A stretch of 30,004 nucleotides of DNA, taken from the IMG/VR virus record IMGVR_UViG_2872198387_000003; one strand, given 5' to 3'. A program made the translations under genes and the position numbers. Of the stretch, positions 11,684-29,568 are shown piece by piece (position 1 is the stretch's first letter; every line of letters begins with the position of its first letter). The DNA comes from a virus. Lineage: Duplodnaviria > Heunggongvirae > Uroviricota > Caudoviricetes. The notes beneath the pieces are model-generated. The model saw only the letters and a list, made by a program, of their open reading frames with translations, was not told the DNA's origin and made no database searches.

Positions 11684-11730
11684 CCTGTGAGGTGTACTGG
11701 CAATAGCGGACACTACCATTTGTTCTTTTT

Positions 11731-12549
11731 TTAAGCAGCCATCTGATGATATTTTTCCCTGAAGGCTGCCGGGGAGATATTCCCCAGACGAGAGTGACGA
11801 CGCTGACGATTGTAGAAAATCTCAATGTATTCCCGTATTACTGAGGTGGCTTCATCCCGGTTATTAAAACGATAGTGGCTCAGGCTCTCATTTTTCAGCG
11901 TTCCCCAGAAGCTTTCCATCGGAGCGTTGTCGTAACAGTTACCTTTACGCGACATTGATGTTTTCAGACCAGACTGCTCCTGTATGACCCGGTAATCGTA
12001 TGCGCAGTACTGTGAACCTCGATCAGAGTGGTGGATTAGCCCGGCAGGTGGGCGCTGGCTCCTGAGCGCCATAAACAGGGCTTTACCTGTCAGCTCTTTT
12101 GTCATGCGCTCTCCCATGGCGTAGCCGACAATTTCACACGTATAAACATCTTTGATGCCAGCGAGGTACAACCATCCCTCCTGTGTGGCAACATACGTCA
12201 GGTCCGCCACCCAGACCTGATTTGGTGCTGTAGGAGCGAACGTCTGGTTCAGCAGATTTGGCGCAACTGGCAGATTGTGGTTCGGGTTCGTAGTCGCTCT
12301 GAACTTGCGTTTCTGCTTACAGCGTAGCCTCAGCTCCTTACGAAGACGTGCCAGTCGGTCACGACCAACGATGATGCCATTCTCTGCCAGCTCCGTCTGG
12401 AGCCGCCGGGTTCCATATGTTTCGCGAGTGCGGATATGTGCCACCTTAATCTCCAGTTTTAGCCGCTCATCACTTTGTTTTCTGTCTGAGGGTTCATGCT
12501 GTACCCAGTTGTAATAACCGCTCCTGGATACACCAAATACCTGACACAT
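11731..12549 (-). CDS. IS600 OrfB (copy 2; one substitution, I to T, relative to the others)
   Basis: 272-aa ORF ...NRDEATSVIREY... versus ...NRDEAISVIREY... Confidence 0.9.
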   Translation of the reverse strand: MCQVFGVSRSGYYNWVQHEPSDRKQSDERLKLEIKVAHIRTRETYGTRRLQTELAENGIIVGRDRLARLRKELRLRCKQKRKFRATTNPNHNLPVAPNLLNQTFAPTAPNQVWVADLTYVATQEGWLYLAGIKDVYTCEIVGYAMGERMTKELTGKALFMALRSQRPPAGLIHHSDRGSQYCAYDYRVIQEQSGLKTSMSRKGNCYDNAPMESFWGTLKNESLSHYRFNNRDEATSVIREYIEIFYNRQRRHSRLGNISPAAFREKYHQMAA

Positions 12550-12584
12550 CGCTTCAATGGGAAATTGTTGTCGCCATTGTTCGA

Positions 12585-12887
12585 TTAACGCGTATTTTTC
12601 AGCGACTCCTGTGCAAAATACGCTGTTGCTTTTTTTAATATATCTCGCTCAAGGCGAGCTTCATTTAACGCCTTACGCAGTTGCAGAATTTCAGATTCCA
12701 GTTCAGCCACCGTGCGGGAACCAGGAGTACCGAGCCCTTTTCTGGCGGCGGTAACCCATTGTCCTAAAGTGCCTTCAGGAAGAGATAATCGGGAAGCGCC
12801 TTCACTGATCGAAAGTTGATTTTCAAGAACCGTTCTGACAGCTTCGGCTTTGAACTCTTTAGAGTAACGTTGGGTTTTTCTGCTCAT
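12585..12887 (-). CDS. IS600 OrfA (copy 2)
   Basis: Identical to the other OrfA copies. Confidence 0.9.
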   Translation of the reverse strand: MSRKTQRYSKEFKAEAVRTVLENQLSISEGASRLSLPEGTLGQWVTAARKGLGTPGSRTVAELESEILQLRKALNEARLERDILKKATAYFAQESLKNTR

Positions 12888-12962
12888 TATTAGCTCCTTC
12901 TGATGCCATTCTATTTCAGGAAGGAGTGTCCGTTAAACTCAGGCTACCTCAGTATTCCCTTA

Positions 12963-13096
12963 GAGTTAATCTTTAATTGGTCTTTAATTAAATCTTTTAT
13001 TTAATACTTAAAGTTAATCTCTAATTGTGTCTTTAAGTTAACTTTAAGTAATACTATAAGTTAATCTTTAATTGTGTCTTTAAGTTAACTTTAAGT
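12963..13096. repeat. About three tandem copies of a ~47-bp unit (AAGTTAATCTYTAATTGTGTCTTTAAGTTAACTTTAAGT), AT-rich with TTAAAG motifs
   Basis: Units at 13011-13049 and 13058-13096 are 38/39 identical; a third degenerate copy at 12964-12987. Confidence 0.7.
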
Positions 13097-13293
13097 TAAG
13101 CCCCTGTAGGGACTAGAGACCATAATTAAGATGATTGTGTCTTATTGCTATTCACTTATCGACTGACCCAGAGCACACAGGAAGCATTCACTTTAAGTAG
13201 AACGCTTGGTGTCTGTAATTGGTCATCCCGCCCCTGAAAGGATGCGATAAGTTACGGTTAGTTGTCCTAGAAGAGAAAACTTTTTGTGTCCCT

Positions 13294-13316
13294 TCTCCCT
13301 ATAGTGAGTCGTATTA
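13294..13316 (-). promoter_or_regulatory. Perfect phage T7 RNA polymerase class III promoter consensus (TAATACGACTCACTATAGGGAGA) reading toward lower coordinates
   Basis: Reverse complement of 13294-13316 is an exact 23/23 match to the T7 consensus -17 to +6; flanking sequence is not a cloning-vector polylinker. Confidence 0.7.
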
Positions 13317-13665
13317 ATTATCCCTTGATAAGTAGAGAAAACTATGAGTCAAAAACATGACCACACAGGTCTGTAGTAAGTGTCATCCTAGACTATGGTC
13401 TCCTCTAGGTCTCCTTATAAACATCAGCCATCACATTGACCAGCCTATCAACCTCGACCTCTTTAGCATAACGGTCGTACGTAATAGACCCTGAACTATG
13501 CCCCATGATCGCCTGTGCATACGCCAACTCGACCCCATGTTGTTTTAACTGGGTCGCAACTGTATGTCTAAACGAGTGAAACGCTATGTAAGTATCCCGC
13601 ATAATCGTGCCATTCACATTTAGAGATCCTCCGGCATACTCAATCTGCCAATTAAGGAGATCGCT

Positions 13666-13932
13666 ATGCGTAAAGCCCGTTTTACTGAGCATCAGATCAT
13701 CGCCGTGATTAAGTCGGTTGAAGCCGGACGAACTGTTAAAGATGTCTGCCGGGAGGCCGGTATCTCTGAAGCCACCTACTACAACTGGAAGTCCAGATAC
13801 GGTGGCATGGAGGCTTCTGATATTAAAAAGATTAAAGAGCTTGAGGACGAGAACCGCCGTCTCAAACAGATGTTTGCCGACCTGAGCCTGGAGAACCGGG
13901 CGCTGAAGGACGTTATCGAAAAAAAGCTTTAA
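13666..13932 (+). CDS. IS3-family OrfA (HTH)
   Basis: MRKARFTEHQIIAVIKSVEAGRTVKDVCREAGISEATYYNWKSRYGGM... ; AAGGAG RBS. Confidence 0.8.
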   Translation: MRKARFTEHQIIAVIKSVEAGRTVKDVCREAGISEATYYNWKSRYGGMEASDIKKIKELEDENRRLKQMFADLSLENRALKDVIEKKL

Positions 13933-14078
13933 AACCAGCCTGTAAGCGTGAGCTGGTCACTCATCTGATAACGACATTCGGACTCAGTATCCGTCAGGCC
14001 TGCCGGAGTCTGAACCTGAGCAGAACGGTTTACCATTACCGCCCGGATACCACGCGTGATGAACCCGTTATTGTCGCG

Positions 14079-14777
14079 TTGCAGGCAGTGGCAGAGCGAT
14101 ACCCACGATACGGTTTTCCGAAACTCTTCCAGGTTCTGCGGCGACAGGGATACCCATGGAATCACAAAAGGATCCACCGTATTTACTGTCTGCTGAAGCT
14201 GAATTTTCGCCGTAAGGGCAAACAACGGTTGCCGGTGCGTAATCCCTCGCCACTGGCCACGTCGGAAGCGCTGAACCAGAGTTGGTCTGTCGATTTTATG
14301 CATGATGCCCTGGTCTGTGGCCGTCGTTTTCGTACGTTCAATGTCGTTGATGACTTTAACCGTGAGGCGTTGTCGATTGAAATCGACCTGAATCTGCCAG
14401 CTCTACGCGTGGTCCGTGTACTCGACAGGATCGCGGCAAACCGTGGCTATCCGGTCAAGCTGCGCATGGATAATGGTCCGGAATTTATCTCCCTGACACT
14501 GGCTGAATGGGCAGAGAAACATGCAGTAAAACTGGAGTTTATCCAGCCGGGTAAGCCGACGCAGAACGCTTTCATTGAGCGCTTTAACCGGACATACCGT
14601 ACAGAAATACTCGATTTTTATCTGTTCAGAACGCTGAATGAAGTGCGGGAAATCACGGAAAAATGGTTGTCAGAATATAACTGTGAACGCCCGCATGAAT
14701 CACTGAACAATATGACGCCAGAGGAATATCGACAACACCATTATTTGGCCGGGATCTCAAAAAATGCCTGGAACTAA
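14079..14777 (+). CDS. IS3-family OrfB (DDE transposase; probably made as an OrfAB fusion by -1 frameshift)
   Basis: 232-aa ORF from the first Met with DDE-core features (...FMHDALVCGRRF..., DNGPEFIS..., FNRTYRTE...). Confidence 0.8.
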   Translation: MQAVAERYPRYGFPKLFQVLRRQGYPWNHKRIHRIYCLLKLNFRRKGKQRLPVRNPSPLATSEALNQSWSVDFMHDALVCGRRFRTFNVVDDFNREALSIEIDLNLPALRVVRVLDRIAANRGYPVKLRMDNGPEFISLTLAEWAEKHAVKLEFIQPGKPTQNAFIERFNRTYRTEILDFYLFRTLNEVREITEKWLSEYNCERPHESLNNMTPEEYRQHHYLAGISKNAWN

Positions 14778-15107
14778 AACGGGTCTATTTACAGCTAAGC
14801 CGCTACGGTCTACGAGGACTTTAGGCAACAACGTCCGATTAAACCATTTACTCACCTGCTCACCGTAACCGTTCTTCATGAGACGCAGACCATCGAACAC
14901 CATAGCGTCATCACCGTCAGCGCCTCTACGGGTCTCTACAAGCGCCATAAAGTCAGCCAATATAAAACCATAGGCCCCATCGACCAGAGGCACACAGCGG
15001 TCACTATGAGCGTTCTTGATGCTCTTACCGGGTAGTGAAGTGGCACACTGAATTTGGCCACCTGAACAGAGGTGATATGCTCACCTCAGAACAACACAGG
15101 TGCTCCA

Positions 15108-16276
<1,169 letters not shown>

Positions 16277-16471
16277 CCACTTCAAGTAGTAGACGCCGTT
16301 ACGCTGGTAGAGATAGTAGACTGCTGGAAGTTTGTGACTACTGGATAGCTGAATCATATGTCTGTATGCCCTGAGAGGGTTACACAGTGGGTTACAGTAA
16401 GTAACTCTGCAAGGAGGCTTAAAGCCGTATCCCTTAGGATTCAGTAGGTTGGAGTACTTTAAGAAAGGTCA

Positions 16472-16546
<75 letters not shown>

Positions 16547-16549
16547 ATA

Positions 16550-16625
<76 letters not shown>

Positions 16626-16627
16626 GC

Positions 16628-16704
16628 TGGCCCACCACCGAGGACTCGAACCTCGCACCGTCAACTTAGAAGGTTGATGCTCTATCCGGATGAGCTAGTG
16701 GTGG
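16628..16704 (-). tRNA. tRNA-Arg (anticodon UCU)
   Basis: Hand-folded: acceptor CCACCAC/GTGGTGG, anticodon loop CUUCUAA, T-loop GGTTCGAGTCC, encoded CCA. Confidence 0.75.
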
Positions 16705-16705
16705 T

Positions 16706-16782
16706 TGGTGGCCCTTGCTGGACTTGAACCAGCGACCTGGCGATTATGAGTCGCTCGCTCTGACCAACTGAGCTAAAGGGCC
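16706..16782 (-). tRNA. tRNA with anticodon CAU (ileX/ileZ-like tRNA-Ile2 or tRNA-Met)
   Basis: GGCCCUU acceptor, anticodon loop CUCAUAA; closely resembles my memory of E. coli ileX. Confidence 0.75.
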
Positions 16783-16791
16783 GGAGGCAGA

Positions 16792-16820
16792 ATAATAACC
16801 ATATGTCATCACATCTGCAA
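16792..16820 (-). promoter_or_regulatory. Predicted sigma70 promoter for the tRNA cluster (-35 TTGCAG, 17-bp spacer, -10 TATTAT)
   Basis: Hexamers read on the minus strand, ending 9 nt before the first tRNA. Confidence 0.4.
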
Positions 16821-16869
16821 ACTCATCTGACCACCAGCGCGTTTAACGCCCTGTGCCATTTTTCAGGCA

Positions 16870-16893
16870 CAAAAAAACCCGCATAAAGCGGGT
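16870..16893 (-). terminator. Intrinsic terminator (hairpin ACCCGC-ATAAA-GCGGGT followed by TTTTTTT on the minus strand) after the ORF6N gene
   Basis: 6-bp GC-rich stem and 7-nt U-tract. Confidence 0.55.
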
Positions 16894-17543
16894 TCTTTCA
16901 AGTGTCCATGTCTGCTATTCGCCTCGCGATACAGCTTTGCGAAGCTTACCGGAATTGAAGCAGTTTATGTGCAAAAATGCAAGAACTTTTTTAAAGCTGC
17001 ATCAACCTTTCCACCAGTTTATCTCTGCGAACAACAAACCAACCATTGGCTCTCGCCAGTTCCAGCCATGACTCAAGGGAAATAACAATATCATCATCCC
17101 GTAACTGAATTGTGGAAACAGTGACACCGCCTCTCTGATAACAGAGAACTCGCGTGTCGTAACTTTTCTGGCATGAAACTGGCGTTGACGGATCCCTTTG
17201 ACTGAAATAGCAGTCTTCCAGTTTTTCGAACACATCCCACGCCTGATCGGTTTCGAGCATTTTGCCGTGGCGTGCTGCGCCTCGTTCTGTCCAGAGGATG
17301 AGGGAGCGGGCTTTGGGTGAAACTGGATTTTGTGAGTAGTTTAAAGCGACCCGCAATTCTTTAAGGTCATTACCAACAACTTTGAAAAAGTGTTTCCCTT
17401 CAACGAAGCGTACTTTGTTCTCATGATGATTCTGGCGAATACGCACCGGCTCAGTGCCGTAAAGCTGCGCCAAAAGTTCGGTGGTAATAACAGGAATCTG
17501 TGAGGTGTACTGGCAATAGCGGACACTACCATTTGTTCTTTTT

Positions 17544-18362
17544 TTAAGCAGCCATCTGATGATATTTTTCCCTGAAGGCTGCCGGGGAGATATTCCCCAG
17601 ACGAGAGTGACGACGCTGACGATTGTAGAAAATCTCAATGTATTCCCGTATTACTGAGATGGCTTCATCCCGGTTATTAAAACGATAGTGGCTCAGGCTC
17701 TCATTTTTCAGCGTTCCCCAGAAGCTTTCCATCGGAGCGTTGTCGTAACAGTTACCTTTACGCGACATTGATGTTTTCAGACCAGACTGCTCCTGTATGA
17801 CCCGGTAATCGTATGCGCAGTACTGTGAACCTCGATCAGAGTGGTGGATTAGCCCGGCAGGTGGGCGCTGGCTCCTGAGCGCCATAAACAGGGCTTTACC
17901 TGTCAGCTCTTTTGTCATGCGCTCTCCCATGGCGTAGCCGACAATTTCACACGTATAAACATCTTTGATGCCAGCGAGGTACAACCATCCCTCCTGTGTG
18001 GCAACATACGTCAGGTCCGCCACCCAGACCTGATTTGGTGCTGTAGGAGCGAACGTCTGGTTCAGCAGATTTGGCGCAACTGGCAGATTGTGGTTCGGGT
18101 TCGTAGTCGCTCTGAACTTGCGTTTCTGCTTACAGCGTAGCCTTAGCTCCTTACGAAGACGTGCCAGTCGGTCACGACCAACGATGATGCCATTCTCTGC
18201 CAGCTCCGTCTGGAGCCGCCGGGTTCCATATGTTTCGCGAGTGCGGATATGTGCCACCTTAATCTCCAGTTTTAGCCGCTCATCACTTTGTTTTCTGTCT
18301 GAGGGTTCATGCTGTACCCAGTTGTAATAACCGCTCCTGGATACACCAAATACCTGACACAT
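17544..18362 (-). CDS. IS600 OrfB (copy 3)
   Basis: Identical to copy 1. Confidence 0.9.
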   Translation of the reverse strand: MCQVFGVSRSGYYNWVQHEPSDRKQSDERLKLEIKVAHIRTRETYGTRRLQTELAENGIIVGRDRLARLRKELRLRCKQKRKFRATTNPNHNLPVAPNLLNQTFAPTAPNQVWVADLTYVATQEGWLYLAGIKDVYTCEIVGYAMGERMTKELTGKALFMALRSQRPPAGLIHHSDRGSQYCAYDYRVIQEQSGLKTSMSRKGNCYDNAPMESFWGTLKNESLSHYRFNNRDEAISVIREYIEIFYNRQRRHSRLGNISPAAFREKYHQMAA

Positions 18363-18397
18363 CGCTTCAATGGGAAATTGTTGTCGCCATTGTTCGA

Positions 18398-18700
18398 TTA
18401 ACGCGTATTTTTCAGCGACTCCTGTGCAAAATACGCTGTTGCTTTTTTTAATATATCTCGCTCAAGGCGAGCTTCATTTAACGCCTTACGCAGTTGCAGA
18501 ATTTCAGATTCCAGTTCAGCCACCGTGCGGGAACCAGGAGTACCGAGCCCTTTTCTGGCGGCGGTAACCCATTGTCCTAAAGTGCCTTCAGGAAGAGATA
18601 ATCGGGAAGCGCCTTCACTGATCGAAAGTTGATTTTCAAGAACCGTTCTGACAGCTTCGGCTTTGAACTCTTTAGAGTAACGTTGGGTTTTTCTGCTCAT
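18398..18700 (-). CDS. IS600 OrfA (copy 3)
   Basis: Identical to the other copies. Confidence 0.9.
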   Translation of the reverse strand: MSRKTQRYSKEFKAEAVRTVLENQLSISEGASRLSLPEGTLGQWVTAARKGLGTPGSRTVAELESEILQLRKALNEARLERDILKKATAYFAQESLKNTR

Positions 18701-18978
18701 TATTAGCTCCTTCTGATGCCATTCTATTTCAGGAAGGAGTGTCCGTTAAACTCAGGCTACCTCACTGGTTATGGGTGATCGGGGAGAGAGTTTCAACAGA
18801 GATTTGAGTGGTCATAACGATAACTCCGTACATTTGGAAATTATCGCCACCGACGACGCCAATCGAACTGGTGGCGAACTGTGCAGGGTTGGCGTAACCG
18901 GGTACGGAAACCGGCGAGCCTTTCGGCTCCCCCACACAGCCCGCCATAAATCGCGAATGTGACTGTGCAAACGATATG

Positions 18979-18999
18979 AAAAAAGACGCGGGCGCGTCT
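18979..18999 (-). terminator. tR'-like intrinsic terminator about 90 bp downstream of the Q-like gene (hairpin AGACGCG...CGCGTCT then TTTTTT on the minus strand)
   Basis: Inverted repeat plus U-tract on the minus strand, in the position where lambdoid phages carry pR'/qut/tR'. Confidence 0.45.
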
Positions 19000-19087
19000 C
19001 ATATCGCTCCGTAAACATCCGGGACGCCAATCCCGACGCCAGATTTTGCTGGCGCGTGAGGAATATAGCCCCGGATAACAGATTGAG

Positions 19088-19642
19088 TCAACAAACGGTT
19101 TTTAGATCCCCGGAAGAGAATGCATCACGCATCGGTAGATAGAGCATATATTCAGCAAGATTTAGCCATACATCTACCCGACTGCAGCACGTCCGGAAAC
19201 ACCACTCAGGGTGTGCGTCATTCAGCAATTCAGCCATTTTACGCTTAGTCATCCCCCGCCCTTCATACCGTTGCCGGAGGACACTAATCAATCCAGGATG
19301 CTCTGCCAGCACCTCACTTATGACTCTATCAATACATAACGCCTCTGCATCAGTACAATGCGCCAGCCAGGTCTTTTGCTTGCCATTGATCATCTCTCGC
19401 AAAAACGCTTCCAGCTCAGGTTTCTCTATTCCCGCTTTTTTCATCCTGCGCAGGGCTTCATTGACGGCTGTTTTCGTCAATTTTTTGGATGCCAGCAACT
19501 GGTTAAACATATTTCCCGTCTTACCGCCGCCAATATACGACCAGCGCCCCCACATGCGCAGTTTTCCCTGAATCCAGACACTTTCCAGCGTGGTGAGACG
19601 AAGGTGTTCCCCGCTTTTGCCTGTATTTGTTGGGTAAATCAT
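19088..19642 (-). CDS. Putative late-gene antiterminator (Q-like) protein, 184 aa from the ATG at 19642
   Basis: Position between the nin-like genes and a downstream terminator; start overlaps the upstream stop (ATGA); Cys-rich C-terminus; the name is contextual only. Confidence 0.45.
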   Translation of the reverse strand: MIYPTNTGKSGEHLRLTTLESVWIQGKLRMWGRWSYIGGGKTGNMFNQLLASKKLTKTAVNEALRRMKKAGIEKPELEAFLREMINGKQKTWLAHCTDAEALCIDRVISEVLAEHPGLISVLRQRYEGRGMTKRKMAELLNDAHPEWCFRTCCSRVDVWLNLAEYMLYLPMRDAFSSGDLKTVC

Positions 19643-19929
19643 AAATAACCTTCCTTTCTCCAGATTTCTTGTGTGCGAAAAACACCTTCTGCATGCATCA
19701 GGCGTAATTCTTCTTTGGTGTAATCGCTGGTTTTTACCCGCCCGTCGATTAAATCGTGGCATGAGCTACAGGCAATCGCTGCCTGCATATCGTGTGGTTT
19801 TGTCGCTGTTCCGCACGTCCCCGCCAGCCTGTAATGCGCCAGCACAGAAGTTTCGGGATTGTGATTGCAGTAGCCAGGAATTCTGACGGTGCACATCTGC
19901 CCCCGCGCCGCTTTACGTAAATCCACCAT
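19639..19929 (-). CDS. Small Cys-rich phage protein (YbcO/DUF1364-like), 96 aa
   Basis: MVDLRKAARGQMCTVRIPGYCNHNPETSVLAHYRL...CSSCHD; start overlaps the upstream stop (TAATG). Confidence 0.4.
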   Translation of the reverse strand: MVDLRKAARGQMCTVRIPGYCNHNPETSVLAHYRLAGTCGTATKPHDMQAAIACSSCHDLIDGRVKTSDYTKEELRLMHAEGVFRTQEIWRKEGYL

Positions 19930-20528
19930 TACGCAAACTCCAGTAACTGCGCGGCCACATTTTCGACTTCCTCCGGAGAGGAAAATTTACGGAACAGGAT
20001 CCAGTTCCACAGCACATTCAGTACAGATTTATAAACCTGCTGAAACTCGGTTTCGTCCATGTTCGCAAATGCGATAGATTTTGCCCTGCGCCCACGACTA
20101 CCATCAGGATAAATATGCTCGGTGTAAAATCCGGCCTGAATGGTTACCCACTCGCGGAAAGCGTCAAACGACTTTAGCAATGCCGTATCCCGGGTTCTGC
20201 ATGTCGCAACTGTATTAAGGTATTGCTCTGCGGCATCACTCAGGGCTGGAGTGTGTTCCCGACCTACTGATTCGCACAGGTAATCAACGAAGCCTGATAC
20301 CAGTTTTCGTTCGCGAGGCGTGATCGCCCCACCGACCGGAGTCCAGTAATCAAATCCCAGTTGCAGGAGTTTGAAAAAACGCTTGTGGAATGCGTAGTTA
20401 CGCACACGCTTAAAGTCTGCGTGTATCCACTCACCTATTTTGATTTGATGCAAAAAATCGCAACTCTCCGGCGTCGCCGGGAGAAGTAATCCGGAAGAGG
20501 TTTGTTTGACCAGTTGTATATGCGCCAT
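19929..20528 (-). CDS. Hypothetical prophage (nin-region) protein, 199 aa
   Basis: Uninterrupted ORF coupled to the downstream gene. Confidence 0.5.
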   Translation of the reverse strand: MAHIQLVKQTSSGLLLPATPESCDFLHQIKIGEWIHADFKRVRNYAFHKRFFKLLQLGFDYWTPVGGAITPRERKLVSGFVDYLCESVGREHTPALSDAAEQYLNTVATCRTRDTALLKSFDAFREWVTIQAGFYTEHIYPDGSRGRRAKSIAFANMDETEFQQVYKSVLNVLWNWILFRKFSSPEEVENVAAQLLEFA

Positions 20529-20661
20529 CGTAGTTCTCCGCTGGCGCAGTAGAATGGGTGTTCAGCCCGTTATGTAGTATACCAGAATTAATGCCAATAC
20601 TAACAGGGTAATGCTGCCAACTTACTGATTTAGTGTATGATGGTGATTTTAAGGTGCTTGC

Positions 20662-20937
20662 GTGGCTTCCATTTCCATCAGATGTCCTTCCTGCTCCGCT
20701 ACTGAAGGCGTGGTGCGTAACGGCAAAAGCACTGCCGGACATCAGCGCTATCTCTGCTCTCATTGCCGTAAAACATGGCAACTACAGTTCACTTACACCG
20801 CCTCTCAGCCCGGTACGCACCAGAAAATCATTGATATGGCCATGAATGGCGTCGGATGTCGCGCCAGTGCACGCATTATGGGCGTTGGCCTCAACACGGT
20901 TTTACGTCACTTAAAAAACTCAGGCCGCAGTCGGTAA
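20662..20937 (+). CDS. insA: IS1 InsA
   Basis: [43 protein letters not shown]... Confidence 0.9.
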
Positions 20938-21359
20938 CCTCGCGCATACAACCGGGCAGTGATGTGATTGTCTGCGCTGAAATGGACGAACATTGGGGCT
21001 ACGTCGGTGCTAAATCACGTCAGCGCTGGCTGTTTTACGCGTATGACAGGATACGGAGGACGGTTGTGGCGCACGTCTTCGGTGAACGCACTCTGGCCAC
21101 ACTGGAGCGTCTTCTGAGCCTGCTGTCGGCCTTTGAGGTCGTGGTATGGATGACGGATGGCTGTCCGCTGTATGAATCACGCCTGAAGGGAAAGCTGCAC
21201 GTTATCAGCAAGCGTTACACTCAGCGCATTGAGCGACATAATCTGAATCTGAGACAACATCTGGCAAGGCTGGTACGGAAGTCACTGTCGTTCTCAAAAT
21301 CGGTGGAGCTGCATGACAAGGTCATCGGGCATTATCTGAACATAAAACACTATCAGTAA
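20856..21359 (+). CDS. insB: IS1 InsB frame (expressed as an InsAB' fusion by frameshift)
   Basis: ORF ...[18 protein letters not shown]...[15 protein letters not shown]. Confidence 0.85.
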
Positions 21360-21376
21360 GTTGGAGTCATTACCTA

Positions 21377-21628
21377 CTAACAGGATGCTCTGACTCGCAA
21401 TTCATCCAGCAGTTTATCATTTCCCATAATGTCACTTACCCTCATCGGTAAAAAAATTGCCTTTCGACCATTACGATACATTATTGATTTTGGGGTTTCA
21501 GGGAAGTAATCCATTTCGACTATAACTGACAGGTCATCACGACGTATGACTGCGTATTTGCTACTAAATAGTTTCTTTATTTTTTCCACGATGCCCCCAG
21601 GTTTATAAGTACAAACGGTTATATCCAC
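21377..21628 (-). CDS. Hypothetical small prophage protein, 83 aa (possibly Rem-like); its stop codon lies inside the IS1 target duplication
   Basis: ORF MDITVCTYKPGGIVEKIKKLF...; the Rem name is a guess from size and the adjacent hok. Confidence 0.4.
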   Translation of the reverse strand: MDITVCTYKPGGIVEKIKKLFSSKYAVIRRDDLSVIVEMDYFPETPKSIMYRNGRKAIFLPMRVSDIMGNDKLLDELRVRASC

Positions 21629-21864
21629 ATAGAGACAAAAATATTAATCTGATAAATATTTATTTCACGCCGTATATTTGATTGTTTAATGTGCAAGTAC
21701 AATGACTTTTATTTTTTGTTGTGTATATAATCAAATATATGGTTATTTTTCACCCTGCGTATTCAGCACGCAACAAAAAACCCGCCGAAGCGGGTTTAGT
21801 GCGGGTGCGTTGAGGATGCCTGACACATGAGAGGTGGCGAGGGATTTCTCCCCCGCCTGGTCTC

Positions 21865-22020
21865 TTACTCCTCAGGTTCGTAAGCTGTGAAGACAGCGAC
21901 CTCCGTCTGGCCGGTTCGGATTCGTACCTCGCAGAGGTCTTTCCTCGTTACCAGTGCCGTCACTATGACGGTTAAACAGATGACGATCAGGGCGATTAAC
22001 ATCGCCTTTTGCTGCTTCAT
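21865..22020 (-). CDS. hok: Hok/Gef-family type I toxin (HokD/RelF-like), 51 aa; the in-frame upstream extension to 22077 is the mok-like reading frame
   Basis: MKQQKAMLIALIVICLTVIVTALVTRKDLCEVRIRTGQTEVAVFTAYEPEE matches my recollection of the Hok family. Confidence 0.8.
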   Translation of the reverse strand: MKQQKAMLIALIVICLTVIVTALVTRKDLCEVRIRTGQTEVAVFTAYEPEE

Positions 22021-22358
22021 AGCCTGCTTCTCCTTGCCTTTCGGCACGTAAGAGGCTAACCTACATTTGTGAGACATAGATTGGGCCTCAGATTAATGTT
22101 AAGCGTCTTGCAGGACGCGTAATGTTAACTGGGGCTTTTCTCTGTCTGCCTTACAGTGGCATGCCCGAGGCAGACAGCCTCAAGCACCCGCAGCAATCTT
22201 ACCGATACCGATAAGAAAACGCTATTTTTTATTGCCAGCACCTTCTATCCAGGCTAATTTATCTGCGTCAGAACGGCGCAATGCGCTCGCCTGAGATACG
22301 TTTACTTGCCATGGTAACAACAGGTAACGGCAATTGCTGTTTCTGTTTTGTTTCCTTC

Positions 22359-22392
22359 AAAAACCCCGGACCATCAATCCGGGGTTTTTGTT
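22359..22392. terminator. Bidirectional intrinsic terminator (CCCCGGA-ccatcaa-TCCGGGG flanked by an A-run and a T-run)
   Basis: 7-bp GC stem with poly-A upstream and TTTTTGTTTG downstream. Confidence 0.6.
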
Positions 22393-22474
22393 TGTTAACC
22401 CCAACGGCAAATCGAATACACCACCAGCGCCACCGCCATCGCAATTCCTACCGTGGTGAATGCCTCAGGCCAGG

Positions 22475-22840
22475 TCATTGATTCACCTCCTGCGGTGGTT
22501 CCGGTAGCGGCATCCAGTGAGTTGAGCTCTCTACTTCAACGCCGTCTTTGTCCACAAAAGCCATCTTATTCCCGCCACGAGTGGGGCAAAAAACCTTATC
22601 CCAGGAACCGGGGAATACATTCCCGAGATCATCGAGAAGAATCACATCGCAATATTCAGCAGGAACTGCATCACTACAGCTTATCCAGCCAGCCAGAGTT
22701 ACCGGAGAGTTGCCAGCCTTACGCATGGCCATTTCCACGATTTCAACCATATCTCCTGGTGGAATTTTACAAAGTTGCCCAATACATTTCTGCTGCCTGG
22801 CATATTCGAGAATGTGCTCCAGTTTGGTTCGATTAATCAT
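22475..22840 (-). CDS. Hypothetical prophage protein, 121 aa (DUF551-like)
   Basis: ORF coupled to the upstream gene (start at 22840). Confidence 0.45.
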   Translation of the reverse strand: MINRTKLEHILEYARQQKCIGQLCKIPPGDMVEIVEMAMRKAGNSPVTLAGWISCSDAVPAEYCDVILLDDLGNVFPGSWDKVFCPTRGGNKMAFVDKDGVEVESSTHWMPLPEPPQEVNQ

Positions 22841-23505
22841 TATTTATCTCCCTTAAGCATGGCAGCGCGGCAGGCGTTCCAGCCATCAACATAATCAAAC
22901 GTATTACTATCGTTTGGCCCGATTTCATCCGGCACTATCGGCTCTGGTTGGATAGTGACGTTGGCAAAGGCAGCACGCAAACCGGTTTTAATTTCTTCGA
23001 TTTCATCAGAGCCAAGCGATGAATCTGACAGTGCGTGATGGAATGCGTAAGCCATGTCGTCGTTTACTGCAACCGGCACTGCCGGCGCTGCGTAAAGCGG
23101 TGTTATATCTGCCCGAAAATCACATGCTTTATGCAGTCGTACCCAACGCTCAACTTCCGCTTTGTAAAAATATATAGCAGTGAACGTATTAGATTCCTGG
23201 TCAACTTGAGTAAACGTCACCTTCCACGCTACAGCTACGGCTTTCCATCCATCAGGTTGTCGCATTCGCGGGGCAGCATAAAGCTCATGCATTCCATCAG
23301 GCAGCGAGTGACCCACATACTCACCGAACCCGTCAATACACATGCCCCCATCTTCAACAATGCATTCCGCTACAGGCTCTGCTTCCAGTGATGCCAGAGC
23401 GATAAGCGCCAGTTCACGAATTTCACCGCCGTCTATATCGTCAATATCATCGCGGCCAGAAATGTTAGCCAGCCATTGCAGTCGCTCTTTGGTAATAGTA
23501 GTCAT
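22840..23505 (-). CDS. Hypothetical prophage protein, 221 aa, acidic N-terminal region
   Basis: Uninterrupted ORF overlapping its neighbours' stop/start codons. Confidence 0.5.
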   Translation of the reverse strand: MTTITKERLQWLANISGRDDIDDIDGGEIRELALIALASLEAEPVAECIVEDGGMCIDGFGEYVGHSLPDGMHELYAAPRMRQPDGWKAVAVAWKVTFTQVDQESNTFTAIYFYKAEVERWVRLHKACDFRADITPLYAAPAVPVAVNDDMAYAFHHALSDSSLGSDEIEEIKTGLRAAFANVTIQPEPIVPDEIGPNDSNTFDYVDGWNACRAAMLKGDK

Positions 23506-23867
23506 GCCGTAGCCCCTTCTTGATATTTTTCAAACCAGAACACAACCGGGTCAGATTTCATTTCAACCAATCCCATACGAACCAGCGCTTTGCCTTTCCC
23601 GGACGCAAGGAATTCACGACGACCATCACTGATAATTCGTCGATAATCTTCCAGGCTACTGCAATGCTTGTGCAGATTGCATGGGTGGCATTCTGGTACC
23701 ATGTTGGATATATCGTCACGTTCCTGGTGAAGCATATTTCCATCAAAACGAATGACCGGTTTTACATGGTCTGCATGCCACTTTTCGCCAAGTTCGCAGC
23801 CGCAATAAGCGCAGCGACCACCGAACTTCATGCGCAGTTCTGCACGTTGTTTTTTCGTCAGTGCCAT
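23502..23867 (-). CDS. HNH endonuclease, 121 aa from ATG 23867
   Basis: CAYCGCELGEKWHADHVKPV...NMVPECHPCNLHK (HNH with two CxxC pairs); AAGGA RBS. Confidence 0.7.
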   Translation of the reverse strand: MALTKKQRAELRMKFGGRCAYCGCELGEKWHADHVKPVIRFDGNMLHQERDDISNMVPECHPCNLHKHCSSLEDYRRIISDGRREFLASGKGKALVRMGLVEMKSDPVVFWFEKYQEGATA

Positions 23868-24179
23868 ATCAGCTTTCCTTATACGGATTAATTTTATTGT
23901 GCAGTGTGTTGAATGACGCCCATACCACGTCGTTATACAATTCAATAACTGGCTCAATTATTTTTCCGATTATCCAGACAAAAATTTGCGGGGATATCGG
24001 TGTCATCAACACGATAAACAGAATGAGAAACAGGAATTCTGTTGTTCTACTCTTTCGCGGATATTTTTTTCTAAATAATGTAACCATTCATTACCGCCCT
24101 TTCGGGCGGTCTCCTGATGATTTGAGGGTGCAGAAATCCCTCCGGTTAAGGATTAAATTTTTAACAGTGCTAAATTTAA

Positions 24180-24536
24180 TTATTCAGTTCTGGATTTTGT
24201 CGCCCTGCGTATCCGCGCTTTCGCGTTACGCTCAATCTGTATCAGCTTTTCTATATTTCTCCGCCTTTCCTGTTCCTCCTGGCGCAATAGCCTTACATCA
24301 TCTGCCAGTCTGGTTTCTCTTTTTGCCACAGAGAGCATCCAGTCAAACGGCTCCACAACCGCACCGCAGATTTTACAGCGGACCTGACGCTCTTTTTCGT
24401 CAACCCGTACAGAGGCGTGATGGCAATATGGTCTTTCCGATGGCTTATAAAGAAAATTAACCTGATTACGAGGGTCATCCTCTTTTATCGGAAATAAAAC
24501 GATATTGCTTAACTCATCTTCTGGTTTTATTTCCAT
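24180..24536 (-). CDS. Hypothetical zinc-ribbon protein, 118 aa
   Basis: GGAGAGGA RBS before ATG 24536; CHH...CKIC motif; basic C-terminus. Confidence 0.45.
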   Translation of the reverse strand: MEIKPEDELSNIVLFPIKEDDPRNQVNFLYKPSERPYCHHASVRVDEKERQVRCKICGAVVEPFDWMLSVAKRETRLADDVRLLRQEEQERRRNIEKLIQIERNAKARIRRATKSRTE

Positions 24537-24593
24537 GCTCCTCTCCTTTGATGCGAATGCCAGCGGTAATTGAAGCCTGATAGCTAATTTCAT

Positions 24594-25016
24594 TCACAGT
24601 ATCGCCTCCTGAAAATTACCCTGATAGAAAGCCAGTACACGCTGCATAGCTTCGCTCTTCCGGCACTCGCGACAGATTATATTCAGGCGCCTGTCGTAGC
24701 GGCGTATTTCTCCGTCAGGTAATGACCAGATAAGGTCCGGATCAACAACAACCGGTTTCCTCACCTTTACTCTCGAGAGTTTTTTGCGGGCGCTTTGCCA
24801 GTCCTTGCGAGCCTGTTCAGACGGGAATAAGCCGTAGCCAGAATTATATACATCACCACTTGCGACCAGTTCTATGCATAAGCGACCGACAGACGCACGA
24901 CTGATACCTGTTTCATCGGACAACTGCCGAATCGTGACCCGACCGTCCTGATGCACGAGTTCCACAATTCGCGTCTTCAGTTCTTCCCGCTGTTCGGGAG
25001 TAAAAGGTTTCGCCAT
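24594..25016 (-). CDS. Hypothetical winged-helix/HTH protein, 140 aa
   Basis: AGGAGG RBS; HTH-like segment VTIRQLSDETGISRASVGRL. Confidence 0.5.
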   Translation of the reverse strand: MAKPFTPEQREELKTRIVELVHQDGRVTIRQLSDETGISRASVGRLCIELVASGDVYNSGYGLFPSEQARKDWQSARKKLSRVKVRKPVVVDPDLIWSLPDGEIRRYDRRLNIICRECRKSEAMQRVLAFYQGNFQEAIL

Positions 25017-25030
25017 AAATCCTCCTGAAA

Positions 25031-25774
25031 CTACTTAACAACCCTCGAATGGCTAACATTCGGACGCCAGCTCTCCCAGTTAAAATTAACCCAGCGCCCG
25101 CCGTTCATGACCATGCGATCCATCACCCGCTCGCCGAGAAGTGTATTCATCGCTGCATGGTTAATATTTGTCAGCATCCCCACACCGCGTAACGATGCCG
25201 TCCGGCGATCAACAATCTGGTTCAGTACCACCTGCTCGTTTTTCGTATCCCGCTGCATGCCAATTTCATCCAGGACCAGCAGGTCAACACCACAAAGCTC
25301 CTGTAAAAATTTTTCACCGGATTTGCCGTTGTCGTAGCTCTCATGCAACACGCTCATGACATCGGACACGGTGACGATAATCACGCTACGCCCCTTCGCC
25401 ATCAGCCGGTTGCCAATCGCGGCTGCAAGATGATTTTTTCCGGTGCCGGGCTTACCGCTGAACACAAAATTCGTACAGCCTGTCATCAGTTCGTCAGCTA
25501 TGGATTTCGCCTGACTCAGTGCATGTCGCTGACCGTCGTTCTGCGCCCGGTAATTCGCAAACGAACACTTCCGGTGCAACGGCTGGATGCCGGAGCGGAG
25601 GATTTTTTCCACCCGCAACTGACGATTCAGGCGGTTGATCTCCTCGCAACGTTTCTGGCCTTCAGCAAGTTGCCACTCGCGCCACTCCGCAACCGTTCTG
25701 AATGGGGCGGTTACATGTGGTGGGGTCAGTCTGCGGATACGCTCCAGAACGCCTCCTGTCGCAATATTTTTCAT
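25031..25774 (-). CDS. DnaC-like replicative helicase loader (AAA+ ATPase), prophage-encoded
   Basis: Walker A GKPGTGKNHLAAAIG and Walker B LLVLDEIG; strong resemblance to my memory of E. coli DnaC (...MLTNINHAAMNTLLGERVMDRM...). Confidence 0.85.
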   Translation of the reverse strand: MKNIATGGVLERIRRLTPPHVTAPFRTVAEWREWQLAEGQKRCEEINRLNRQLRVEKILRSGIQPLHRKCSFANYRAQNDGQRHALSQAKSIADELMTGCTNFVFSGKPGTGKNHLAAAIGNRLMAKGRSVIIVTVSDVMSVLHESYDNGKSGEKFLQELCGVDLLVLDEIGMQRDTKNEQVVLNQIVDRRTASLRGVGMLTNINHAAMNTLLGERVMDRMVMNGGRWVNFNWESWRPNVSHSRVVK

Positions 25775-26612
25775 GGTCTGTTACCCCCTGAAGCCTAGCG
25801 GGATCGCACTGTCCGGCAACGAGACGGTGTTAACCTGTCGGAGCAACGTCTCAGGCCGAACACCTTTCGGCGCGAACAGACCCTGGTATTCATTGGCGAT
25901 GCTGTGTCGAATCACCTGCTCAGGTGTAAAACCCTGCTGACGGAATTTTTCCAGTTCCCGTATCGCCCCGTTAGCGCCCAGCTCCGTTCGAATCGGTTTT
26001 CGCAATGCCTGCCTGAACTGGACCCACTCATGCCAGAGTGTTTCTGGCAACCAGTCGGGCAGATCAACTGACAACGGGTCAAATTTTTTCTGGCGAACAG
26101 CCCCACCGATAACCAGAATTCCCTGCTCGGTGTGCCTTGCGATATCACTGCGCCGCAAGACACATATCCCGGTTTCAACAGCACCGATTTTGAGCAGTGA
26201 TTTCTGTCGCGGAGAATTTCGGTCAAGCTCGATCCCACACCGGACACCGTTCCTGTCAGTCACGACGATATCAATCCGCCCTCCGCAACCGTCACCACGC
26301 TCTGGCACCGGATACTCACGACAGACATCCAGGCCAGCAGCCTGCAACGCAACCACCGCAGAATTACAAAATTCCGCTGCAGTACCGCCAGATAATCTCC
26401 CCTCAAGCACTCCAGCCACAAAATCCCGAAACTCCCTTCCGGAAGGGAAGGGTTTGGGATGGGTTAGATCTGTTTTTAGATCTTTATCTGTATCTTTATT
26501 AGTTGCCTTTGTGTTGGCATCTAGACTGGCCCCCTGAATCTCCAGACAACCAGTATCACTTATTTAAGTGATAGTCTTAATACTAGTTTTTAGACTAGTC
26601 ATTGGAGAACAG

Positions 26613-26978
26613 ATGATTGATGTCTTAGGACCGGAGAAACGCAGACGGCGTACCACACAGGAAAAGATCGCAATTGTTCAGCAGAGCTTTGAACCGGGGA
26701 TGACGGTCTCCCTCGTTGCCCGGCAACATGGTGTAGCAGCCAGCCAGTTATTTCTCTGGCGTAAGCAATACCAGGAAGGAAGTCTTACTGCTGTGGCCGC
26801 CGGAGAACAGGTTGTTCCTGCCTCTGAACTTGCTGCCGCCATGAAGCAGATTAAAGAACTCCAGCGCCTGCTCGGCAAGAAAACGATGAAAAATGAACTC
26901 CTCAAAGAAGCCGTTGAATATGGACGGGCAAAAAAGTGGATAGCGCACGCGCCCTTATTGCCCGGGGATGGGGAGTAA
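26613..26978 (+). CDS. insC: IS2 InsC (copy 2)
   Basis: Identical protein to copy 1. Confidence 0.9.
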
Positions 26979-27841
26979 GCTTAGTCAGCCGTTGTCTCCG
27001 GGTGTCGCGTGCGCAGTTGCACGTCATTCTCAGACGAACCGATGACTGGATGGATGGCCGCCGCAGTCGTCACACTGATGATACGGATGTGCTTCTCCGT
27101 ATACACCATGTTATCGGAGAGCTGCCCACGTATGGTTATCGTCGGGTATGGGCGCTGCTTCGCAGACAGGCAGAACTTGATGGTATGCCTGCGATCAATG
27201 CCAAACGTGTTTACCGGCTCATGCGCCAGAATGCGCTGTTGCTTGAGCGAAAACCTGCTGTACCGCCATCGAAACGGGCACATACAGGCAGAGTGGCCGT
27301 GAAAGAAAGCAATCAGCGATGGTGCTCTGACGGGTTCGAGTTCTGCTGTGATAACGGAGAGAGACTGCGTGTCACGTTCGCGCTGGACTGCTGTGATCGT
27401 GAGGCACTGCACTGGGCGGTGACTACCGGCGGCTTCAACAGTGAAACAGTACAGGACGTCATGCTGGGAGCAGTGGAACGCCGCTTCGGCAACGATCTTC
27501 CGTCGTCTCCAGTGGAGTGGCTGACGGATAATGGTTCATGCTACCGGGCTAATGAAACACGCCAGTTCGCCCGGATGTTGGGACTTGAACCGAAGAACAC
27601 GGCGGTGCGGAGTCCGGAGAGTAACGGAATAGCAGAGAGCTTCGTGAAAACGATAAAGCGTGACTACATCAGTATCATGCCCAAACCAGACGGGTTAACG
27701 GCAGCAAAGAACCTTGCAGAGGCGTTCGAGCATTATAACGAATGGCATCCGCATAGTGCGCTGGGTTATCGCTCGCCACGGGAATATCTGCGGCAGCGGG
27801 CTTGTAATGGGTTAAGTGATAACAGATGTCTGGAAATATAG
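26936..27841 (+). CDS. insD: IS2 InsD (copy 2)
   Basis: Identical protein to copy 1. Confidence 0.9.
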
Positions 27842-28368
27842 GGGCAAATCCAGCATCATGTTCGAACACCACTCCAACATCTGTTTGAACACCTGTTAAA
27901 TTTCTCTCTTGTTTTGTTTGAACATCTGCTTCCTTTCTGCTTCTTCTGGCCTGAACAGATGCTTTTCCTGCGGCTGATTTTTTGGTTAATTTTTCTCTGA
28001 CAGATGCCAGATCTTCCTCAATCCGAAGATGCATCCATTCGTCGCCGTTATCACAAAAAAACTCCCGCAAGGATGGTTCAACATCAACCCATCGCTCGTT
28101 AGTCAGACGGGCAATTTTTGCCAACCTGTTTTTGGGTATTGGCTTTCCTGTTTGCCAGTAATTGAACATCAGCAACAAATACGCGCCGTGCTCCTCTGCT
28201 GACAAATGCATGGTGTCAGCCAGGTAATCAGCTATGTACAGTTGCATGTATGGTAATGCGGCCATAATTGCCCCGTATGATGCTACCCGGTTGCTTAGAA
28301 TAAGTGAGGTAGCCTGAGTTTAACGGACACTCCTTCCTGAAATAGAATGGCATCAGAAGGAGCTAATA

Positions 28369-28671
28369 ATGAGCAGAAAAACCCAACGTTACTCTAAAGA
28401 GTTCAAAGCCGAAGCTGTCAGAACGGTTCTTGAAAATCAACTTTCGATCAGTGAAGGCGCTTCCCGATTATCCCTTCCTGAAGGCACTTTAGGACAATGG
28501 GTTACCGCCGCCAGAAAAGGGCTCGGTACTCCTGGTTCCCGCACGGTGGCTGAACTGGAATCTGAAATTCTGCAACTGCGTAAGGCGTTAAATGAAGCTC
28601 GCCTTGAGCGAGATATATTAAAAAAAGCAACAGCGTATTTTGCACAGGAGTCGCTGAAAAATACGCGTTAA
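28369..28671 (+). CDS. IS600 OrfA (copy 4)
   Basis: Identical to the other copies. Confidence 0.9.
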   Translation: MSRKTQRYSKEFKAEAVRTVLENQLSISEGASRLSLPEGTLGQWVTAARKGLGTPGSRTVAELESEILQLRKALNEARLERDILKKATAYFAQESLKNTR

Positions 28672-28706
28672 TCGAACAATGGCGACAACAATTTCCTATT
28701 GAAGCG

Positions 28707-29525
28707 ATGTGTCAGGTATTTGGTGTATCCAGGAGCGGTTATTACAACTGGGTACAGCATGAACCCTCAGACAGAAAACAAAGTGATGAGCGGCTAAAAC
28801 TGGAGATTAAGGTGGCACATATCCGCACTCGCGAAACATATGGAACCCGGCGGCTCCAGACGGAGCTGGCAGAGAATGGCATCATCGTTGGTCGTGACCG
28901 ACTGGCACGTCTTCGTAAGGAGCTGAGGCTACGCTGTAAGCAGAAACGCAAGTTCAGAGCGACTACGAACCCGAACCACAATCTGCCAGTTGCGCCAAAT
29001 CTGCTGAACCAGACGTTCGCTCCTACAGCACCAAATCAGGTCTGGGTGGCGGACCTGACGTATGTTGCCACACAGGAGGGATGGTTGTACCTCGCTGGCA
29101 TCAAAGATGTTTATACGTGTGAAATTGTCGGCTACGCCATGGGAGAGCGCATGACAAAAGAGCTGACAGGTAAAGCCCTGTTTATGGCGCTCAGGAGCCA
29201 GCGCCCACCTGCCGGGCTAATCCACCACTCTGATCGAGGTTCACAGTACTGCGCATACGATTACCGGGTCATACAGGAGCAGTCTGGTCTGAAAACATCA
29301 ATGTCGCGTAAAGGTAACTGTTACGACAACGCTCCGATGGAAAGCTTCTGGGGAACGCTGAAAAATGAGAGCCTGAGCCACTATCGTTTTAATAACCGGG
29401 ATGAAGCCATCTCAGTAATACGGGAATACATTGAGATTTTCTACAATCGTCAGCGTCGTCACTCTCGTCTGGGGAATATCTCCCCGGCAGCCTTCAGGGA
29501 AAAATATCATCAGATGGCTGCTTAA
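28707..29525 (+). CDS. IS600 OrfB (copy 4)
   Basis: Identical to copy 1. Confidence 0.9.
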   Translation: MCQVFGVSRSGYYNWVQHEPSDRKQSDERLKLEIKVAHIRTRETYGTRRLQTELAENGIIVGRDRLARLRKELRLRCKQKRKFRATTNPNHNLPVAPNLLNQTFAPTAPNQVWVADLTYVATQEGWLYLAGIKDVYTCEIVGYAMGERMTKELTGKALFMALRSQRPPAGLIHHSDRGSQYCAYDYRVIQEQSGLKTSMSRKGNCYDNAPMESFWGTLKNESLSHYRFNNRDEAISVIREYIEIFYNRQRRHSRLGNISPAAFREKYHQMAA

Positions 29526-29568
29526 AAAAAGAACAAATGGTAGTGTCCGCTATTGCCAGTACACCTCA

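Follow-up and report, generated by a model that had tools for sequence, protein, structure and literature searches.

IS600 copies without target-site duplications at rearrangement junctions in a Shigella flexneri-type prophage region

Results

Gene content and origin of the window

The present study deals with a 30,004-nucleotide stretch of DNA, the IMG/VR virus record IMGVR_UViG_2872198387_000003 (hereafter, the window), which carries four full-length copies of the insertion sequence (IS) IS600 among prophage remnants and chromosomal genes. Our best explanation, which we consider likely for copies 1 to 4 taken together, is that all four are ordinary IS600 copies in a Shigella flexneri-type chromosome and that two of them, copies 2 and 4, are rearrangement junctions.

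Positions 3666-23932 of the window are 100% identical, at every base, to positions 885392-905658 of CP026776.1 (locus L043), a finished 4.5-Mb chromosome that groups with S. flexneri assemblies. From the accession series, we take CP026776.1 and its lineage mates to be Shigella flexneri. The same region is present, with small differences, in many other complete chromosomes of this lineage. Loci used for comparison came from K-12, enteroinvasive Escherichia coli (EIEC) RMDEC465, EIEC FDAARGOS_944 (L003), EIEC VL40 (L004), enterohaemorrhagic E. coli (EHEC) strain 20.1, LR213452.1, CP034931.1, CP044152.1, and CP178302.1 (L033).

The features of the window are collected in Table 1. Positions 1-489 and 1754-2365 correspond to yebW-pphA of K-12 at 1.922 Mb and are followed by ipaH3 and then by tail-fibre genes, while the other end lies in pgrR, found in K-12 at 1.392 Mb. 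In other words, the two ends of the window are 530 kb apart in K-12. The left end constitutes the attL side of the prophage array inserted at pphA-yebY.

Table 1. Positions, strands, and character of the features discussed in the text
Feature	Position	Strand	Remarks
yebW and 3′ part of pphA	1-489		K-12 orientation; attL side of prophage array; from K-12 alignment
IS600 copy 1	490-1753	-	simple insertion in pphA, duplication AAC
IS2	8022-9352	+	5-bp duplication GCTGC intact; control for ordinary insertion
Truncated recE, 474-aa ORF	10259-11683	+	Pfam Exonuc_VIII; aligned to recE of E. coli prophages
IS600 remnant TGAGGTAGCCTG	11676-11687	+	12-bp tip of orfA-proximal inverted repeat, attributed to an older IS600 opposite to copy 2
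IS600 copy 2	11688-12951	-	no target duplication, CTG/GTA; left junction lineage-wide, right junction only in source assembly
Remnant of integrative element on prophage-borne tRNA-Gly	12952-16471	.	integrase split by two IS
T7 class III promoter consensus, perfect 23-nt TAATACGACTCACTATAGGGAGA	13294-13316	-	in non-coding DNA
IS3-family element in integrase	~13587-14793		
IS911-like element in integrase	15036-16283		flanks TAG/AGT
IS600 copy 3	17501-18764	-	simple insertion in ORF6N-domain prophage gene, duplication CTG
IS1, 768 bp	20607-21374	.	9-bp duplication TACTAACAG intact; control
IS2 in ydaU	26522-27852	+	5-bp duplication GCATC intact; control
ydaU 5′ portion (DUF1376, prophage replication gene)	27853-28304	-	cut by copy 4, 12 bp into the reference-annotated gene
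IS600 copy 4	28305-29568	+	recombinant; flanked by AAG towards ydaU and by GGA towards pgrR; read as inversion endpoint
pgrR, first 436 nt (chromosomal, LysR-family regulator)	29569-30004	-	reversed relative to K-12

Four near-identical IS600 copies, two with unlike flanks

Each copy is 1264 bp long, and the copies differ from one another by 1-4 single-nucleotide polymorphisms (>99.6% identity). Copies 1-3 share one orientation, with the transposase on the minus strand, and copy 4 is inverted. All four (4/4) have the termini TGAGGTGTAC...CTACCTCA, and their size (~1.2-1.3 kb class), imperfect terminal inverted repeats, and 5′-TG...CA-3′ ends are those of the IS3 family. So are the overlapping reading frames, orfA (100 aa) with a helix-turn-helix domain and orfB (272 aa) with a DDE (rve) integrase core; Pfam assigns HTH_Tnp_1, HTH_21, rve, and rve_3 to products identical to the IS600 ORFs. 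The copies are 99.4-99.8% identical to RefSeq E. coli copies named 'IS3-like element IS600 family transposase'. A 'programmed frameshift', which in the IS3 family yields an orfA-orfB fusion and is recorded by RefSeq for IS600 copies of 99.5-99.8% identity, is predicted for the window copies as well.

The boundaries and flanks were set by repeat finding and direct inspection, with the flanks read on the plus strand. They are AAC/AAC for copy 1, CTG/GTA for copy 2, CTG/CTG for copy 3, and AAG/GGA for copy 4. These are the triplets given by an earlier reading of the window (the original prediction), which had claimed 3-bp repeats for copies 1 and 3 and unlike flanks for copies 2 and 4. For copies 1 and 3, that claim is now joined by empty sites in relatives. 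The junction sequences, empty sites, partner junction, and colinearity with other chromosomes reported here were all directly observed.

The 3-bp duplication of the IS3 family is thus seen at copies 1 and 3, each with a matching empty site, and at an IS600 in recE of EHEC (CTA). The flanks of copy 1 are contiguous in EIEC RMDEC465, where pphA is intact, and their K-12 alignments overlap at the target. Similarly, the ORF6N gene hit by copy 3 is intact in the FDAARGOS_944 prophage, in which the two flanks overlap by exactly CTG. A single 3-bp flank match has a chance of 1/64, and the uninterrupted sites stand in addition to it. Both copies are simple, untouched copy-out/paste-in insertions. The interrupted ORF6N′ ORF, when looked up, had matches on short metagenome scaffolds only. 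The two IS2 and the IS1 (Table 1) served as controls.

Neither the two flanks of copy 2 nor those of copy 4 are contiguous in any of the references compared. The missing duplications are therefore true rearrangement signatures and do not come from mis-set boundaries. As stated in the original prediction, inverting the segment between copies 2 and 4 leaves the flanks unreconciled: the outcome would be CTG/CTT and TAC/GGA. Its further conclusion, that deletions or recombination with copies outside the window are implied, also holds: a pgrR-side partner of copy 4 is present in CP178302.1, and the right-hand site of copy 2 is 14,892 bp away in relatives. An exchange between copies 2 and 3, which share a left CTG, was considered and rejected, because the flanks of copy 3 make up one intact site and the CTG of copy 2 belongs to a 12-bp IS tip.

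Left side of copy 2: a 12-bp IS600 tip in recE

Copy 2 had been described as joining an unknown cassette to a T7-like remnant. The junction is real, but the cassette represents the early region (rha-IS2-kil-ydaE-recE′) of a lambdoid prophage, and the supposed T7-like remnant is a tRNA-Gly integrative element remnant that has no T7 genes, although it does contain a perfect T7 promoter 23-mer.

On the left side, the homology to recE stops at position 11675. The next 12 nt, TGAGGTAGCCTG, match exactly the 12 outermost nucleotides at the orfA-proximal end in the four window IS600 copies, read inward, and supply the stop codon of the truncated gene. Native recE continues from the equivalent of 11675 with CTCGCGGAGAAT, unlike the sequence in the window. 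The chance of a 12-bp match at a fixed position is ~6e-8. This remnant, overlooked in the original prediction, ends in the CTG that forms the left flank of copy 2. The presence of a 12-bp IS600 tip next to recE′ implies that an older, oppositely oriented IS600 once resided in recE.

The exact truncated RecE protein is present in many S. flexneri chromosomes, and the recE′-TGAGGTAGCCTG-copy 2 junction is identical in 11 chromosomes. In 10 of these 11 (all but the source), copy 2 is bordered on its right by GAG and then gam, corresponding to L004 29418. From this position, it follows that recE has lost 504 bp from its 3′ end. A duplication was lacking at copy 2 already in the common ancestor of the 11 chromosomes.

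Other insertions were met in recE. EIEC VL40 has an independent IS600 (L004 26453-27716) without a duplication (ATG/CAG), at which 9 bp, ACCTCCCGC (window 10470-10478), are missing. Yet another IS600, in EHEC strain 20.1, has a normal duplication, and FDAARGOS_944 carries ISEc60. Hence, recE is repeatedly targeted by insertions.

Right side of copy 2: a 14,892-bp deletion in the source strain

The right flank of copy 2 in the window is GTATTCCCTTAGAG..., beginning with GTATTCCC.... The corresponding uninterrupted site, ...CTTAAGGTATTCCC..., is present in eight loci (L024, L026, L027, L028, L030, L017, L018, and L005), of which five are loci of related chromosomes, two are metagenome scaffolds, and one is E. 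coli FT130. In CP034931.1 and CP044152.1, a distance of 14,892 bp separates the end of copy 2 from the GTA site, with which it is colinear, and the right junction is therefore of the deletion type. A deletion between direct copies is expected to leave what we observed: a single IS, flanks that are colinear in two other chromosomes, and 14,892 bp absent from the window locus.

The missing block comprises gam, a gene for an AAA_24 ATPase, xis, an integrase fragment, tail-fibre genes, another IS600 (termed X), IS1, a rha fragment, and an IS911-like element. It also includes four transporter genes (ZnuA-like, ABC_tran, and two ABC-3 by Pfam), which we take to be sitABCD. Analogous products of deletion between IS600 copies occur nearby in L023, L029, and L032. 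There, the IS600 at the position of copy 3 has TAC (the left flank of X) and CTG (the right flank of copy 3); in this recombinant of X and copy 3, the island, the tRNAs, and ORF6N′ are deleted. Pairing of the GTA right of copy 2 with the TAC left of X was also considered and was rejected, because the surrounding sequences are unrelated. The right junction of copy 2 was not found in a scan of JGI metagenomes.

The integrative element next to copy 2

The element to the right of copy 2 abuts the tRNA-Gly of a prophage tRNA cluster (16472-16782) with the order Gly(tcc)-Thr(tgt)-Arg(tct), followed by a tRNA with a CAT anticodon, which ARAGORN calls Met and whose homologue is Ile in RefSeq. E. coli FT130 has the same integrative element at the chromosomal glyU. 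Where intact, the island integrase has 534 aa. The look-up of an integrase-fragment ORF of the window (13405-13692) found it not on record.

The IS911-like element inside the integrase has no duplication and replaces 1,111 bp that are intact in L024; the latter locus carries the same element at another place and in the opposite orientation. As for the T7 resemblance, a 59-bp match of 81% identity to the T7-like Salmonella phage Vi06 was found. The T7 promoter 23-mer occurs three times each in L024, L027, L028, and L030, twice each in L005 and L017, and once each in L018 and L026. The repeats in these relatives are ~120 bp apart, and none is expected by chance.

Copy 4: a junction of ydaU and pgrR with a partner locus in another genome

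The original prediction that copy 4 joins a truncated LysR gene to prophage replication genes is borne out, with the 5′ part of pgrR on one side and ydaU on the other. The left flank follows the FDAARGOS_944 prophage gene ydaU as far as L003 22686, beyond which the native DNA reads CACAAACAGC. The immunity region is indeed missing, as had been claimed: nothing in the window matches L003 22687-25005, the stretch with ydaT and the cro-like and cI-like genes. Both junctions of copy 4 recur in seven other chromosome loci (L023, L024, and L026-L030) and are therefore ancestral to the lineage and no assembly artefact. Furthermore, one IMG/VR contig (L045) is colinear with window 18865-30004, copy 4 and pgrR included.

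When the expected partner of copy 4 was sought by pattern, one locus emerged, L033 in CP178302.1 (labelled E. coli), with the order mppA-pgrR3′-GGA / IS600 / GAT-xis-int-yebY-copD. The pgrR pieces of the window and of L033 overlap on K-12 by exactly 3 bp, 1,392,424-1,392,426, and both carry the triplet GGA next to the IS600. The right part of L033 begins at K-12 1,923,104 (yebY onward), with a 31-bp overlap with the attL side of the window. All four arms have the orientations expected for recombination between inverted IS600 copies in pgrR and the prophage.

The 31-bp overlap (window 2335-2365, L033 5994-6024, K-12 1,923,104-1,923,134) lies inside the sdsR/ryeA small-RNA locus and is probably the att core of the prophage. 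In CP178302.1, an insert of ~1.29 kb (L033 2281-3569), presumably another IS, breaks the partner IS600. One more locus, L025 (CAJFAY010000003.1), keeps the ydaU-side junction of copy 4 and has a holin gene and pmrD, not pgrR, on the other side, which reflects a further strain-specific exchange at this IS.

Discussion

Copy 2 is the product of no fewer than two events: an older one, common to 11 chromosomes, and a later one, seen in the source strain alone. In the first event, in an ancestor of the lineage, the orfB-proximal end of copy 2 would have been joined to position 12/13 of the terminal repeat of the older, opposite IS600 in recE. Loss of ~504 bp of the recE 3′ end and of the rest of the older IS would have left recE′-12 bp-IS600-gam. 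Nested insertion followed by deletion fits this left junction as well as transfer of an IS end into the resident repeat, and its sequence does not separate the two. In the second event, the other end of copy 2 would have been joined to the GTA site 14,892 bp downstream. The likeliest route would be insertion of a daughter IS600 at GTA and then recombination between the two direct copies.

For copy 4, the starting point would be two inverted IS600 copies, one in the chromosomal pgrR (target GGA) and one in ydaU of the prophage between pphA and yebY. Homologous recombination between them would have created the hybrid copy 4 together with a ~0.53 Mb inversion across the replication terminus, and the consequence would be the present layout of the window, with yebW-pphA first, prophage remnants next, and the 5′ part of pgrR last. 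At the pgrR site, the features of a reciprocal inversion are present: GGA on both products, the 3-bp overlap on K-12, the right orientations, and attL and attR split between the loci. From these junctions, we infer both the order of events and a homologous rather than transposase-mediated joining.

Several observations weigh against this account. The partner junction of copy 4 is known from CP178302.1, a different genome, and not from CP026776.1. At the prophage site, the two products, which come from different genomes, have AAG and GAT with no clean match; the GAT flank of L033 lies upstream of xis and is not the AAG-ydaU continuation predicted by a single clean inversion. At least one further IS600-associated loss, covering ydaT, the immunity genes, and the stretch up to xis, must therefore be assumed, which agrees with the absence of the immunity region from the window. 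As for copy 2, its right junction is seen only in the source assembly, no IS600 with GTA on both sides occurs among the genomes examined, and the copy is 100% identical to that of LR213452.1, with no internal trace of a hybrid. Exact-pattern scans for the other predicted partners (the ydaU side, the pgrR side in viral contigs, the recE side, and the gam side) were negative, although these negatives are weak, since a control scan showed that the viral collection has only two relevant contigs.

A different origin is possible for the junctions of copy 2, though we regard it as clearly the less probable one: the transposase, and not homologous recombination, may have made them. One IS600 end would have attacked a nearby target, first the terminal repeat of another IS600 and then the GTA site, with loss of the intervening DNA. 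The join coincides exactly with the IS tip and falls within the terminal repeat of a second IS600, and the lack of a GTA/GTA-flanked intermediate among the loci examined points the same way. Moreover, insertion next to IS ends and host processing of the branched products have been described for IS911 (PMC7986276; reference list of PMC2909936). However, copy-out/paste-in transposition leaves the donor in place, and a new insertion followed by RecA-dependent recombination is the simpler explanation for deletions, even if the two routes are not separable by sequence alone. Along the same line, we tentatively suggest that the recE′-TGAGGTAGCCTG-IS600 junction could be a natural footprint of self-targeted transposition, in which one IS600 end entered the repeat of another 12 bp from its tip; host processing may then have removed the rest of the older IS600. 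If true, targeted insertion, which is known from plasmid assays with IS911, would also hold for IS600 in a chromosome.

Copy 4 could alternatively stem from a simple deletion of ~30 kb, in which a prophage at the Rac site (ttcA) lost its ydaT-immunity-recE-int arm along with the chromosomal stretch from ttcA to mppA and the 3′ part of pgrR. This was our initial reading, modelled on the layout in EIEC FDAARGOS_944, where a 96-99.6% identical prophage resides at ttcA and the ydaU and pgrR breakpoints are colinear, correctly oriented, and 29,891 bp apart. We now find it improbable and downgraded it on account of attL at the left end of the window, which belongs to the pphA-yebY site and not to the Rac site, and of the partner locus L033. 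The reciprocal junction exists there, with pgrR3′-mppA retained and joined to xis-int-yebY. Besides, the deleted interval would contain fnr. This gene is presumably present and functional in S. flexneri. A full-length PgrR search for a C-terminal fragment in Shigella returned only full-length proteins among the matches, a result that carries no weight either way. The terminus-spanning inversion is our preferred reading of copy 4.

An assembly artefact at the right junction of copy 2, with the contig mis-joined via collapsed near-identical IS600 copies, is more improbable still. That junction is confined to the source assembly, and elements of 1.26 kb with >99.6% identity lend themselves to such errors. 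Nevertheless, the junctions of copy 1, the left side of copy 2, copy 3, and copy 4 all recur in independent complete assemblies, and comparable IS600-bounded deletions are real in neighbouring strains. The join also lies exactly at the IS end, the flank starts at a plausible 3-bp target, and the source is a finished chromosome. The notion that copies 2 and 4 are ordinary insertions without duplication, or with duplications decayed by point mutation, has nothing but the unlike triplets in its favour and is refuted, as the two sides (recE versus the tRNA-Gly island for copy 2, ydaU versus pgrR for copy 4) are not neighbours in any reference.

The finding is chiefly one of bookkeeping: IS copies without duplications reliably flag structural breakpoints. 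In this strain, an iron/manganese transporter locus (sitABCD-like by Pfam, as seen at the locus level) has apparently been lost at one breakpoint, and a conserved pgrR-prophage junction of S. flexneri is tied to a terminus-spanning inversion. That IS copies without duplications occur at recombination junctions in Shigella is already textbook knowledge, and the current understanding of IS-driven genome reduction in this genus is unchanged. The conserved 12-bp IS-tip footprint is the only mildly unusual detail.

With regard to that footprint, the left junction of copy 2 resembles the targeted insertion of IS911, in which the end of an IS3-family element becomes linked to a second copy, at or within the terminal repeat of the latter, with no normal duplication (PMC7986276). 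In contrast to IS911, which was studied in plasmid assays, the IS600 case is a static chromosomal footprint that nested insertion plus deletion explains equally well. Compared with IS600 of Shigella (IS3 family, IS3 group), the element is alike throughout, and what is unusual is confined to the flanks of copies 2 and 4.

According to published comparisons, inversions at terC are found in every sequenced Shigella chromosome, and two S. flexneri strains in the Sf301 and Sf8401 comparison differ by an inversion that IS600 mediated (PMC1550401). Furthermore, a large share of IS sites is common to S. flexneri lineages (Hawkey et al. 2020, PMC7373316). The pgrR/ydaU junction, the recE/12-bp tip, and the 14.9-kb sit-like loss were not found described in these two comparisons (PMC1550401, PMC7373316). 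In kind, however, the rearrangements of the window are like the published IS-mediated ones of Shigella, in which recombination between homologous IS copies gives rise to deletions and to inversions that take in terC (PMC1550401, PMC7373316).

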